From a virus (Duplodnaviria; Heunggongvirae; Uroviricota; Caudoviricetes), in IMG/VR virus record IMGVR_UViG_2706794682_000006: a stretch of DNA of 5,673 nt; one strand, given 5' to 3'. A model generated the notes under the pieces. The model was not told the DNA's origin, searched no databases, and was given only the letters and a program-made list of their open reading frames with translations. Each line of letters begins with the position of its first letter. The stretch's first letter is position 1. Positions 2,302 to 5,673 of this stretch are shown here, in pieces. The translations under genes and the position numbers were made by a program.

Positions 2302-2318
2302 ATTTTATAACCCATATA

Positions 2319-2347
2319 CGGGCGCCAGAAATGGCGCCTTTTTTATT
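2319..2347 (+). terminator. Rho-independent terminator downstream of J
   Basis: Perfect 6-bp GC stem GGCGCC (2321-2326) / GGCGCC (2333-2338) with 6-nt loop AGAAAT, followed directly by TTTTTTATT (2339-2347). It begins 18 nt after the J stop codon. Confidence 0.75.
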
Positions 2348-2357
2348 GCAGAAAAGC

Positions 2358-2363
2358 GAGAGG
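2358..2363 (+). promoter_or_regulatory. Shine-Dalgarno sequence for lom (GAGAGG), 5 nt upstream of the ATG
   Basis: GAGAGG at 2358-2363, spacer TAATT, ATG at 2369. Confidence 0.7.
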
Positions 2364-2368
2364 TAATT

Positions 2369-2440
2369 ATGCGTAAAGTTTGTGCAGCCATTTTGTCCGC
2401 AGCCATCTGTCTGTCCGTATCCGGTGCGCCTGCATGGGCA
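2369..2440 (+). other. Predicted signal peptide of Lom (24 aa, cleavage after AWA)
   Basis: [24 protein letters not shown] followed by SEHQ; Lys/Arg n-region, hydrophobic h-region, AxA motif at -3/-1. Confidence 0.7.
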
Positions 2441-2968
2441 TCTGAACATCAGTCCACGCTGAGCGCGGGCTATCTTCATGCCTCGACGAACGTTCCCGGC
2501 AGCGATGATCTGAACGGGATTAACGTGAAATACCGTTATGAGTTTACGGACACACTGGGGCTGGTGACGTCATTCAGCTATGCAGGAGACAAGAATCGCC
2601 AGCTTACCCGTTACAGCGATACCCGCTGGCATGAAGATTCCGTGCGTAACCGCTGGTTCAGCGTGATGGCGGGGCCGTCTGTGCGCGTGAATGAATGGTT
2701 CAGCGCGTATGCGATGGCGGGTATGGCTTACAGCCGTGTGTCGACTTTCTCCGGGGATTATCTCCGCGTAACTGACAACAAGGGGAAAACGCACGACGTG
2801 CTGACCGGAAGTGATGACGGTCGCCACAGCAACACGTCTCTGGCGTGGGGAGCTGGCGTGCAGTTTAACCCGACCGAATCCGTGGCCATTGATATTGCTT
2901 ATGAAGGCTCCGGCAGTGGTGACTGGCGCACTGACGGTTTCATCGTGGGTGTCGGTTATAAATTCTGA
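2369..2968 (+). CDS. lom: Lom-like outer membrane protein (Ail/Lom/PagC/Rck/OmpX family 8-stranded beta-barrel); prophage 'moron' / lysogenic-conversion gene
   Basis: 199-aa ORF with a good RBS. The N-terminus [24 protein letters not shown] is a classic Sec signal peptide (basic n-region, hydrophobic core, A-x-A cleavage site). The protein ends in ...[24 protein letters not shown]; a terminal aromatic (Phe) beta-strand is the outer-membrane-barrel signature, and the motifs GINVKYRYE and SVMAGP match what I recall of lambda Lom and Ail-family proteins. It sits between J and stf as in lambda and is bracketed by terminators. Confidence 0.9.
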
Positions 2969-2994
2969 TTAGCCAGGTAACACAGTGTTATGAC

Positions 2995-3021
2995 AGCCCG
3001 CCGGTTCAGGCGGGCTTTTTT
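2995..3021 (+). terminator. Rho-independent terminator downstream of lom
   Basis: 8-bp stem AGCCCGCC (2995-3002) / GGCGGGCT (3009-3016) with loop GGTTCA, then a T run through 3021. It lies in the 64-nt lom-stf intergenic gap. Confidence 0.8.
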
Positions 3022-3032
3022 GTGGGGTGAAT

Positions 3033-5673
3033 ATGGCAGTAAAGATTTCAGGTGTACTGAAAGACGGCACAGGAAAACCGGTACAGAACTGCACAATCCA
3101 GCTGAAAGCAAAACGTAACAGCACCACGGTGGTGGTGAACACGCTGGCCTCAGAAAATCCGGATGAAGCCGGGCGTTACAGCATGGACGTTGAGTACGGG
3201 CAGTACAGCGTTATTCTGTTGGTGGAGGGATTCCCGCCGTCACATGCCGGGACCATCACCGTGTATGAAGATTCCCGACCCGGTACGCTGAATGATTTTC
3301 TCGGTGCCATGACGGAGGATGATGCCCGTCCGGAGGCTCTGCGCCGTTTTGAACTGATGGTGGAAGAGGTGGCGCGTAACGCGTCCGCGGTGGCACAGAA
3401 CACGGCAGCCGCGAAGAAGTCAGCCAGTGATGCCGGCACATCTGCCCGTGAGGCGGCAACCCATGCGACTGATGCTGCAGGCTCAGCGCGTGCAGCCAGC
3501 ACGTCAGCCGGACAGGCCGCGACTTCGGCTCAGGAGGCGTCTTCCAGCGCAGGAACGGCATCAACAAAGGCCACTGAAGCATCAAAAAGTGCTGCCGCTG
3601 CAGAGTCCTCAAAAAGCGCGGCGGCCACCAGTGCCGGTGCGGCGAAAACGTCAGAAACGAATGCTGCAGCGTCACAAAAATCAGCAGCCACTTCTGCATC
3701 CACTGCGACAACGAAAGCGTCAGAAGCCGCCACTTCAGCCAGAGATGCGGCGGCCTCCAAAGAGGCGGCAAAATCATCAGAAACGAACGCCTCCACAAGC
3801 GCCAGCAGTGCAGCCTCCTCGGCAACGGCGGCAGGAAATTCCGTGAAGGCGGCAAAAACGTCCGAGACGAATGCTAAGTCTTCTGAAACGGCAGCGGAAC
3901 AGAGCGCCTCAGCTGCGGCAGACTCTGAGACAGCAGCTGCATCATCGGCCCGTGAGGCGTCCATTAAGGCAGAGGAGGCAGCAGTCAGTGCCACCGCCGC
4001 CGGAAAATCGGCAGAAAGCGCCGCATCATCCGCTTCAACAGCCACAACGAAGGCTGGCGAAGCCACTGAACAGGCCAGCGCAGCAGCGAGGTCTGCTTCC
4101 GCAGCGAAGACATCCGAAACGAACGCGAAAGCGTCGGAAACAAGCGCAGAATCCTCAAAAACGGCTGCCGCATCGTCAGCCAGTTCGGCGGCGTCATCGG
4201 CATCATCGGCGTCTGCTTCAAAAGATGAGGCGACCAGACAAGCGTCAGCAGCGAAGAGCAGCGCCACGACGGCATCCACGAAGGCGACAGAGGCTGCTGG
4301 CAGTGCGACGGCGGCAGCTCAGAGCAAAAGTACGGCGGAATCCGCGGCAACGCGCGCCGAGACAGCAGCTAAACGGGCAGAGGATATTGCATCCGCCGTG
4401 GCGCTTGAGGATGCGAGCACGACGAAAAAGGGGATAGTACAGCTCAGCAGTGCGACCAACAGCACTTCCGAGTCACTGGCGGCAACGCCAAAGGCAGTAA
4501 AAGCAGCCTATGACAATGCAGAGAAACGTCTGCAGAAAGACCAGAACGGTGCTGATATCCCCGACAAGGGCCGCTTCCTGAATAACATTAATGTTTACAG
4601 CAAAGGTGAAGTGGATAAGAAAAAGGGGATGCGAAAATACACTTTCTCTGCTCCTGCAAATGCAGTAAGCGGTAAGTGGTATCCTATAGTCTTTCGCCGA
4701 TCTGGAGGCGGTACCGATGAATTAGCCTCACGAGTTGTGATAACTACTTATTCCTCAGCTGGCGGATACGCCATGAATAATTGTGAATTTAATGGGTTTG
4801 TTATGCCTGGCGGTTGGTCTGATCGCGGTTCATATGCGGCTGGTTTTTTCTCAATATATTCTACTGCTGAGCGAGCTATACACTCGATTATTTCAAGTGT
4901 GAAAGATGACGATTTGTGTAGTGTATTTTACGTTGAAGCCAGAGCATTTCCTATCAAGATATTTGCTGAGGAGGGCTTGAACGTAATTGTTCCAACTACT
5001 GACTATACCGTTGGTCAAGCCACCTATAAGTGGGGGGCCACAGATCCAGTAGCAGAAAGTACAAATACTCAAACCATTCTGGATTTTAAAAATGGACGTG
5101 GTTATTACTGCTCACATCAGTTTGTTTCAAGCCTTTCAGGAAATGCAGCAACAGCAACGAAATTAGCAAGTTCAATAAACATAGGTGGTGTATCCTTTGA
5201 TGGTTCAGCCGATATAGATTTGCCTGGTGTGAATACAAAAGGTAATCAAGACACTACCGGTAATGCAGCGACAGCGACCAAGTTGCAGACAGCATGTACT
5301 ATCAACGGCGTCTCGTTTGATGGTTCTAAAGATATTGAACTTAACCCACGGTCTATAGGCACGATCAACTCCACAACAATGTCTTTTAGTGGTGGTGCTG
5401 GATGGTTCAAGCTGGCAACGGTAACCATGCCGCAGGCGAGTTCTGTTGTTTCAATTACGTTGATTGGTGGGGCTGGATATAACGTCGGTTCACCTCAACA
5501 GGCAGGTATATCTGAACTTGTTTTGCGTGCAGGTAATGGTAATCCGAAGGGGATTACTGGTGCTTTATGGCAGCGCACATCGGCAGGGTTTACAAATTTT
5601 GCCTGGGTCAATACATCTGGTGATACTTACGATATTTACGTTGCAATCGGAAATTATGCGACTGGTGTAAATA
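3033..5673 (+). CDS. stf: Side tail fibre protein (Stf), N-terminal ~880 codons; 3'-partial (no stop before window end). Lambda-Stf-like N-terminal region joined to a divergent distal receptor-binding region
   Basis: ATG at 3033 is the first ATG after an in-frame TGA at 2991-2993 and is preceded by GGGG (3024-3027). Hand translation of frame 0 shows no stop through 5672. The N-terminus MAVKISGVLKDGTGKPVQNCTIQLKAKRNSTTVVVNT...GRYSMDVEYGQYSVIL...TITVYEDS matches my recollection of lambda Stf (orf-401) almost residue for residue, followed by a long Ala/Ser/Thr-rich region and ...KKGIVQLSSATNSTSESLAATPKAVK. The distal part carries two tail-fibre repeat units. It is absent from the ORF track only because that track needs a stop codon. 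Confidence 0.88.
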   Translation, partial: MAVKISGVLKDGTGKPVQNCTIQLKAKRNSTTVVVNTLASENPDEAGRYSMDVEYGQYSVILLVEGFPPSHAGTITVYEDSRPGTLNDFLGAMTEDDARPEALRRFELMVEEVARNASAVAQNTAAAKKSASDAGTSAREAATHATDAAGSARAASTSAGQAATSAQEASSSAGTASTKATEASKSAAAAESSKSAAATSAGAAKTSETNAAASQKSAATSASTATTKASEAATSARDAAASKEAAKSSETNASTSASSAASSATAAGNSVKAAKTSETNAKSSETAAEQSASAAADSETAAASSAREASIKAEEAAVSATAAGKSAESAASSASTATTKAGEATEQASAAARSASAAKTSETNAKASETSAESSKTAAASSASSAASSASSASASKDEATRQASAAKSSATTASTKATEAAGSATAAAQSKSTAESAATRAETAAKRAEDIASAVALEDASTTKKGIVQLSSATNSTSESLAATPKAVKAAYDNAEKRLQKDQNGADIPDKGRFLNNINVYSKGEVDKKKGMRKYTFSAPANAVSGKWYPIVFRRSGGGTDELASRVVITTYSSAGGYAMNNCEFNGFVMPGGWSDRGSYAAGFFSIYSTAERAIHSIISSVKDDDLCSVFYVEARAFPIKIFAEEGLNVIVPTTDYTVGQATYKWGATDPVAESTNTQTILDFKNGRGYYCSHQFVSSLSGNAATATKLASSINIGGVSFDGSADIDLPGVNTKGNQDTTGNAATATKLQTACTINGVSFDGSKDIELNPRSIGTINSTTMSFSGGAGWFKLATVTMPQASSVVSITLIGGAGYNVGSPQQAGISELVLRAGNGNPKGITGALWQRTSAGFTNFAWVNTSGDTYDIYVAIGNYATGVN
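3400..4430 (+). repeat. Low-complexity Ala/Ser/Thr/Lys/Glu-rich coding repeat region inside stf, with imperfect internal DNA repeats
   Basis: Recurrent peptide motifs K-T-S-E-T-N-A (nt 3649-3669, 3855-3875, 4108-4128; related S-S-E-T-N-A at 3775-3792) and S-A-S-T-A-T-T-K-A-(S/G)-E-A (3693-3728 and 4029-4064). The codons are dominated by GCN/TCN/ACN, which creates long stop-free runs in other frames and on the antisense strand. Confidence 0.8.
5139..5342 (+). repeat. Two copies of a phage tail-fibre repeat motif within stf (protein-level tandem repeat, units 40 codons apart)
   Basis: Unit 1 at 5139-5222 is GNAATATKLASSINIGGVSFDGSADIDL; unit 2 at 5259-5342 is GNAATATKLQTACTINGVSFDGSKDIEL. Both are in the stf frame. 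The motif GNAATA(T)KL...(R/C)TINGV.FDGS..I resembles what I recall as the 'phage tail fibre repeat' seen in T4 gp34-type and many enterobacterial prophage tail fibres. Codon usage differs between the two units, so the duplication is not recent. Confidence 0.75.

Follow-up and report, generated by a model that had tools for sequence, protein, structure and literature searches.

Lom belongs to the Ail/Lom/OmpX/PagC/Rck family of 8-stranded outer-membrane beta-barrels, and lom is a classic example of a prophage gene thought to benefit its host, with a role in adhesion and a family link to serum resistance. The lambda J-lom-stf layout is a textbook moron, and in this sense the feature described here is already known. 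Morons were reportedly defined by Juhala et al. in 2000 for phages HK97 and HK022. In a review, the definition of a moron includes a promoter of its own and often an atypical GC content (PMC3594210). Lambda expresses only a few of its genes in lysogens, and lom is one of them (PMC7067206, PMC1151598); a passage of PMC9836094 that cites Liu 2013 describes it as strongly expressed in the lytic cycle as well. In one lysogen array study lom was undetectable, and according to the same study little is known of the lom promoter (PMC2147009). Our search of the accessible literature found no mapped lom transcription start.

The window analyzed here is a stretch of 5,673 nucleotides from a virus of the Caudoviricetes (IMG/VR record IMGVR_UViG_2706794682_000006). 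It contains three co-oriented genes on the + strand, J, lom, and stf, in the same order as in lambda (J-lom-stf, with stf as orf-401; NC_001416, 18,903-19,650). The region is a lambda-type J-lom-stf segment of a lambdoid E. coli prophage. An earlier note on this DNA, made from the letters alone, had placed lom between the late tail genes J and stf, and the open reading frames and Pfam matches agreed with this. The J portion is the 3' two-thirds of the gene and matches Ig_J, Ig_J_second, Phage_Tail_Tip, and Ig_GpJ_C, while stf matches phage_tail_N (E 1e-71). Near-identical segments in E. coli chromosomes are annotated in RefSeq as gpJ, Ail/Lom family protein, and prophage tail fibre. Some match to the window occurred in 5067 of 5426 E. 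coli complete genomes, with a median of 3 places per genome, and the segment is also present in more than 200 lambdoid and Stx phage records. The window holds neither a Q gene nor a pR' promoter. An Rfam search at E<=1 returned sub-threshold noise only, and no tandem repeats were found at the DNA level in the Ala-rich part of stf. The features of the window are as follows.

1-2301, + strand: 3' part of J, the tail-tip host-specificity gene, from the ORF list and Pfam; open at the window start, stop codon TGA at 2299-2301.
2302-2319, + strand: spacer of the backbone between the J stop and the hairpin, ATTTTATAACCCATATAC, with the -10-like hexamer TATAAC at 2306-2311; also in lom-less phages.
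2320-2347, + strand: predicted intrinsic terminator distal to J, resident in the backbone; 8-bp stem, GAAA loop, T tract TTTTTTATT at 2339-2347.
2348-3020, + strand: lom indel of 673 nt, comprising leader, lom, 3' UTR, its own hairpin, and 5 T, from alignment to lom-less junctions; the edge is ambiguous by one T.
2348-2368, + strand: lom leader, GCAGAAAAGCGAGAGGTAATT, with the Shine-Dalgarno sequence GAGAGGT (2358-2364), read from the sequence.
2369-2968, + strand: lom, coding for a predicted precursor of an Ail/Lom-family 8-stranded outer-membrane beta-barrel of 199 aa (Pfam PF06316).
2995-3021, + strand: predicted intrinsic terminator belonging to lom; stem 2995-3002/3009-3016, loop GGTTCA, T run 3016-3021.
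3022-5673, + strand: backbone resumes with the Shine-Dalgarno region of stf, GTGGGGTGAAT, followed by the side tail fibre gene itself; ATG at 3033, open at the window end.

The comparison with lambda extends to the fine structure of the locus. Lambda also has a hairpin and T tract between the J stop and lom, and there too the T tract joins the leader with its GAGAGGT ribosome site in the same way. The two phages agree in all of the last 27 residues of Lom, and from this region through the 3' UTR and the terminator to the stf start their DNA identity is 92-96%. In contrast, identity is only 50-60% over a block of about 1 kb (about 1830-2880) that includes the receptor-binding end of J, the hairpin, and 85% of lom; the first part of the block, J from about 1830 to the stop, is a receptor-binding allele with 50-60% DNA identity to lambda. 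Since the divergent block ends within lom, the mosaic joint lies inside lom and not at the terminators. The two Lom proteins are 44% identical overall, with strongly divergent surface loops. The lambda upstream hairpin has another sequence, with a stem of 6 bp and -9.7 kcal/mol, compared with 8 bp and -15.7 kcal/mol in the window.

The lom product is a clear member of the Ail/Lom family. The ORF at 2369-2968 covers residues 1-199 of the 199-position Pfam profile Ail_Lom (PF06316) at E 1e-121, with a score of 404 bits against a cut-off of 23. Among PDB sequences, it matched lambda Lom (9wso_C) at 4.5e-50, and OmpX (1orm, 2m06) and Ail (3qra) at about 1e-17 to 1e-18. As stated in the earlier note, lom has a ribosome-binding site of its own and a signal peptide: GAGAGGT at 2358-2364 ends 4 nt before the ATG, and codons 2369-2440 code for MRK, a hydrophobic core, and a cleavage site between AWA and SE, read directly from the translation. 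The C-terminus (...GVGYKF) has an aromatic last residue, as in OMP barrels. Thus a full-length profile match, a signal peptide, and the C-terminal end are all shared with the Ail/Lom/OmpX/PagC/Rck family. Roles of this Lom in adhesion and serum resistance may be proposed by analogy with lambda Lom, Ail, and Rck.

Two intrinsic terminators had been proposed to flank lom, at 2319-2347 and 2995-3021, and folding and a strict scan placed them within 1 nt of these positions. The strict scan required a stem of 7 bp or more with 5 or more G-C pairs, and 5 or more T among the 6 positions that follow it; on both strands, it found only these 2 sites in the window. With 300 dinucleotide-preserving shuffles, the average was 0.033 strict sites per window, and no shuffle contained two. 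A loose scan found 8 sites where 6.1 were expected, so it is the quality and placement of the two sites, rather than the raw number, that beat chance. The upstream hairpin (2320-2327/2332-2339) has 8 bp, of which 6 are G-C, and a GAAA loop, followed by TTTTTATT to 2347. Its folding energy of -15.7 kcal/mol (z -3.3) was equalled by none of 200 shuffles. The downstream hairpin (2995-3002/3009-3016) also has 8 bp, 7 of them G-C, with the loop GGTTCA and a T run to 3021, and folds at about -18.2 kcal/mol (z -3.4), a value that likewise surpasses all or nearly all shuffles. Both fit the anatomy of intrinsic terminators, with a G+C-rich stem, a loop of 3-8 nt, and a U tract directly 3'. On the minus strand, the bases after either hairpin are not T-rich, suggesting that both would act on rightward transcripts only.

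The two hairpins were compared across 80 IMG/VR lom loci, lambda, and lom-less relatives. The upstream stem occurs in variants such as GGGCGCC/GGCGCC, GGGCGTC/GACGCC, and GGGCACC/GGTGCC. In 19 distinct variants, 98% of the cells pair, whereas pairing was only 32-61% in a control with the 3' partner slid by 1-3 columns. Two pairs showed compensatory changes (G-C to A-U and C-G to U-A, in either direction), although the sequences are closely related and the independent events therefore number a handful. In one locus (L075) the loop is flipped from GAAA to TTTC with the stem intact. The T tract that follows is invariant across the E. coli variants, and lambda and a Citrobacter prophage have different hairpins at this position. 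The downstream hairpin is nearly invariant in lom loci, and in lambda a C-to-U change leaves a G-U pair. Loci L093, L063, and L099 have another type of lom 3' end, in which a non-homologous hairpin, GCCCGTGGCGTCACTGCTGCGGGC, followed by T7, occupies the same position before stf, with a folding energy of -24 kcal/mol. In these comparisons the structure and the U tract, rather than the sequence, are conserved among relatives.

The earlier note had treated lom as a moron, and the presence or absence of the gene agreed with this. A chimeric query of the J end and the stf start was used to search for loci without lom. J and stf were found 58 nt apart, with no lom between them, in phages mEp460_4F5, Lambda_2G7a, and ev017, and lom-less J-stf junctions were also found in four E. 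coli chromosomes. Every lom-less junction reads J stop, ATTTTATAACCCAGATAC, GGGCGCCAGAAATGGCGCC, TTTTTTATT, and TGTGGAGTG(A/G)ATATG; that is, the upstream terminator of the window followed by the sequence found after its downstream T run. When 2348-3020 (673 nt) was deleted from the window, the junction aligned without gaps to four lom-less phage and E. coli sequences, and the window from 3021 on aligned to the sequence 3' of the resident T tract in the lom-less phages. In a spread sample of E. coli complete genomes, lom was present in 36 of 46 J-stf places and absent from 10, counts that are indicative only, with the best place taken per record.

These junctions assign the two terminators to different units. 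The same hairpin is found between J and stf with or without lom, and the upstream terminator is therefore a resident element of the J-stf backbone, separate from the lom unit. The downstream hairpin and its T run fall inside the indel. The proposal that lom is a terminator-insulated cassette thus held for the downstream side only: the upstream hairpin also stands in lom-less phages and the indel begins at 2348, after it. The lom unit is a 21-nt leader, the ORF, and its own terminator, docked directly after the resident T tract, and it restores the order of a terminator followed by the stf ribosome site. The leader is invariant in 80 of 80 IMG/VR lom loci and in close Escherichia and Shigella relatives, whether lom is intact or frameshifted. 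Lambda and Citrobacter have homologous leaders at the same junction. The lom-less junctions are identical across differing J and stf alleles, and the lom-bearing junctions likewise. This indicates that the two states are probably separated by a single indel event, which may have been either an insertion or a deletion.

It is possible, though rather doubtful in our view, that lom is ancestral to the J-stf backbone and that the lom-less state arose by secondary deletion, through illegitimate recombination between the two T tracts. The present anatomy would be unchanged by such a history. A deletion would be consistent with the T runs at both edges of the indel, which share 1-2 nt of microhomology, with the excess of lom-bearing over lom-less loci in the sample above, and with the similarity in composition between lom and its flanks. 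However, a crossover within two T6 runs would give CCTTTTTTGTGG, whereas the observed junction retains ATT+T. The uniformity of both kinds of junction points to a single event without favoring this direction, and lom is of a chromosomal OMP family (OmpX/Ail) and ends in its own terminator like captured host genes. A search of 185k species genomes found no non-phage donor of the lom cassette and no donor locus with a longer upstream region. It returned the same phage context in Escherichia, Shigella, and Citrobacter, together with distant homologues (28-32%) with unrelated flanks in Xenorhabdus and Proteus, and lambda contamination.

Compared with the morons of HK97 and HK022, lom is likewise an extra gene between two genes that are adjacent in related phages, and its 3' end carries a factor-independent terminator of its own. 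By analogy, its product would also act on the host cell rather than on the virion. The lom unit differs from morons in two respects. The added DNA contains no sigma-70 promoter, with 21 nt ahead of the ATG, and the GC content of lom is not atypical relative to its neighbors. The GC fraction was 0.52-0.58 in lom, compared with 0.46-0.56 at the end of J and 0.51-0.59 at the start of stf, so composition gave no sign of a foreign origin of lom. Since only 21 nt of the indel precede the ATG, the lom unit cannot contain a promoter.

The reported expression of lom in lambda lysogens implies that some promoter exists. The earlier note had seen no convincing sigma-70 pair upstream of lom, and consensus and PWM scans reproduced this. 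The sigma-70 consensus scan of the window gave no + strand match, and the PWM scan of the 270 nt upstream of lom gave nothing above about 5.9 bits. A PWM with spacer and TG terms, applied to the 400 nt before the ATG in the window, lambda, and five other alleles, gave weak matches, none of them conserved in position; a non-canonical or factor-dependent promoter would be missed by such scans. The distance between the upstream T tract and the ATG, given as about 20 nt, measured 21 nt, which is too short to accommodate a promoter. As had been argued from this spacing, a lysogenic start would have to sit at or upstream of the hairpin.

A dedicated lysogenic promoter overlapping the J 3' end or the spacer, for example with TATAAC at 2306-2311 as the -10 element, seems unlikely. 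In such an arrangement transcription would start at about 2318-2320, and the lom mRNA would begin with the hairpin, which would act as an attenuator or a 5' stabilizer. The hexamer had been pointed out as the nearest -10-like sequence; it is present in the spacer, at 2306-2311 and not at 2305-2310. It matches 5 of 6 positions of the -10 consensus and sits in a spacer common to several J alleles, lambda lysogens are reported to express lom (PMC7067206, PMC1151598), and lambda has TATTAT/TATAAA after its hairpin, 24-27 nt before the ATG. However, TATAAC lacks the key final T, a -35 element, and a TG extension, and phages without lom also have it, ahead of stf. Among relatives the hexamer is found as TAAAAC, CATAAC, or TTTAAC, and neither lambda nor Citrobacter has it. 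The lambda TATTAT is not matched in the window, which has TTTATT/TATTGC, and a transcript from 2318 would meet a strong terminator within 30 nt. The hexamer was rejected as the -10 element of lom, given its occurrence before stf in lom-less phages and its variability in relatives.

Other candidates were also rejected. A TTGAYA motif resembling a -35 element about 214 nt upstream recurs as coding sequence for the conserved peptide VIDMP and has no usable -10 element. A leaderless promoter, TTTATT-17-AATTAT, would have its -10 element over the ATG, and transcription would start inside lom. The 24B_1 small RNA of phi24B, described as downstream of lom (PMC4426718), has another genomic setting, does not occur in lambda, and is not relevant here. 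The last 130 or so codons of J comprise at least 4 alleles with 30-50% protein identity, all of them before the same spacer, so a promoter inside J could not move together with lom. For synonymous-site conservation to hint at an embedded element, the J 3' end offered too few comparable codons.

Taken together, the locus probably consists of a backbone terminator after J and a promoterless 673-nt lom unit with its own terminator, with late read-through by Q-modified polymerase and at most leaky expression in the lysogen. Following lambda biology, the Q-antiterminated late transcript would run through both hairpins during lytic growth and include lom, which would be translated from its own ribosome site, and Lom would be exported to the outer membrane. 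Unmodified polymerase arriving from J in the prophage would mostly be halted at 2339-2347 and the residual polymerase at 3016-3021, and stf would stay silent. If lom is expressed in the lysogen at all, this would then depend on weak starts, not conserved among alleles, at the hairpin or upstream of it, combined with leak through the terminator, and the level would likely be low and allele-dependent. Documented lysogenic expression is confined to lambda; for this allele it is an assumption carried over from there, and the weaker upstream hairpin of lambda (-9.7 vs -15.7 kcal/mol) means that the lambda result may not be simply transferable. It is very unlikely that the hairpins serve mainly in RNA stability or processing, by protecting the 3' ends of the J and lom message or giving rise to a small RNA from the J 3' UTR: their position inside an operon that Q-modified polymerase is believed to traverse (acting purely as terminators there would matter only in the prophage), their conserved structure, and a Citrobacter hairpin after lom that has no T run are in keeping with such a role, but the stems of both hairpins in the window are immediately followed by textbook U tracts, the upstream tract does not vary among the E. 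coli forms, the non-homologous replacement after lom again brings a T7 run, and the two roles are not mutually exclusive.

The refinement of the known lambda layout proposed here, a resident upstream terminator and a promoterless lom unit, is modest, and it is read from sequence comparisons. The general picture of lambdoid late-operon organization is unchanged. However, with the upstream terminator in the backbone and no promoter in the lom unit, lysogenic conversion by lom should not be assumed for every allele. The lom promoter, long unmapped, is a small gap that is directly testable.

The site directly after J may also matter beyond lom. Lambdoid prophage effector loci of EHEC use the same cargo hot spot. 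Tentatively, lom may be a promoterless passenger, captured or maintained behind the backbone terminator, whose expression in the prophage is set only by leak from fortuitous starts at the hypervariable receptor-binding end of J. Lysogenic Lom levels would then vary with hairpin strength and J allele, the main selected role of lom might be lytic instead of lysogenic conversion, and T tracts after J might be a preferred docking site for cargo such as lom and the EHEC effector loci. In phage PPompW_EH1992, the hairpin, the leader, and the beginning of lom are the same, with the effector genes espO and nleG after them. This phage differs from the window in that its lom is truncated after about 57 residues and type III effector cargo follows, whereas in the window lom is intact and stf comes next.

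Compared with lambda (L001, lambda 16600-22300), the window has one block, 1830-2880, where DNA identity is just 50-60%; the sequences flanking it are 80-96% identical to lambda. The block comprises the receptor-binding end of J, the hairpin upstream of lom and about 85% of lom. Its right-hand joint is located within lom at about 2880, and therefore the last 27 residues of Lom and the lom 3' UTR resemble those of lambda; the remainder of the protein is 44% identical to lambda Lom. The 2026 copy of the PDB includes a solved structure with lambda 'Outer membrane protein lom' (9wso chain C; 206 aa, two chains), and a literature search for a paper describing 9wso found none.

A change in composition was also observed within the stf ORF, which runs open past the window end. 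At 4500-4700 the AT skew collapses and GC content, initially about 0.61, drops to about 0.42-0.45. Because of these two shifts, our results suggest a mosaic joint at this position, connecting the Ala/Ser/Thr-rich shaft to a distal receptor-binding part of other origin. Many long ORFs on the minus strand and in other frames overlap the Ala-rich part of stf at 3176-4465, the longest reaching 249 aa, for example:

3530-4279, minus strand, long ORF over the Ala-rich part of stf

These ORFs look like by-products of biased composition. The antisense 'orf206b' annotated within orf-401 of lambda is the same phenomenon. No DNA tandem repeat was detected at 3176-4465.

The site following J is a cargo hot spot. 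In the EHEC prophage PPompW_EH1992 (LC567832.1, 2900-5400), the end of J, the hairpin, the leader and the start of lom are the same as in the window, but lom breaks off after about 57 residues and the type III effectors espO and nleG are encoded next. In addition, the lom allele of the window is frameshifted or fragmentary in several chromosomal copies, in Shigella flexneri (L103, L124) and E. coli (L118-L119). These damaged copies, seen as ORFs of 108 and 46 codons or as partial matches, are decaying prophage copies.

The hairpins flanking lom vary among the relatives. In the J-lom spacer of one compared locus (L075), the loop of the upstream hairpin is inverted from GAAA to TTTC and the stem is unchanged, which is a typical palindrome flip. 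In the lom-stf spacer of Citrobacter meridianamericanus (L101), the hairpin GCCCGC..GGCGGGC (-14.8 kcal/mol) is probably a poor terminator, since AUCUUAUGG takes the place of a U run after it; the T7 run is retained at the hairpin before lom in this locus. A further element lies between the lom stop and the lom terminator:

2978-2990, perfect 13-bp palindrome, TAACAC-A-GTGTTA

With so short a loop, this palindrome cannot form a hairpin in RNA; it may bind a protein or have no role. Lambda and nearly all loci examined carry it unchanged, in a 3' UTR so conserved throughout that this identity supports no inference.

Matches to lom were also found in contigs from unrelated taxa (L105-L115), including Neobacillus, Kitasatospora, Leeuwenhoekiella, Pseudomonas, Shewanella, Desulfosporosinus, and others. 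The nine contigs checked represent lambda DNA contamination of public assemblies: their lom gene shows zero mismatches to lambda lom, and three of the nine are ~48.4-48.5 kb, as long as the lambda genome. Where contig names state coverage, it is about 1-10x, mostly about 1-2.5x.
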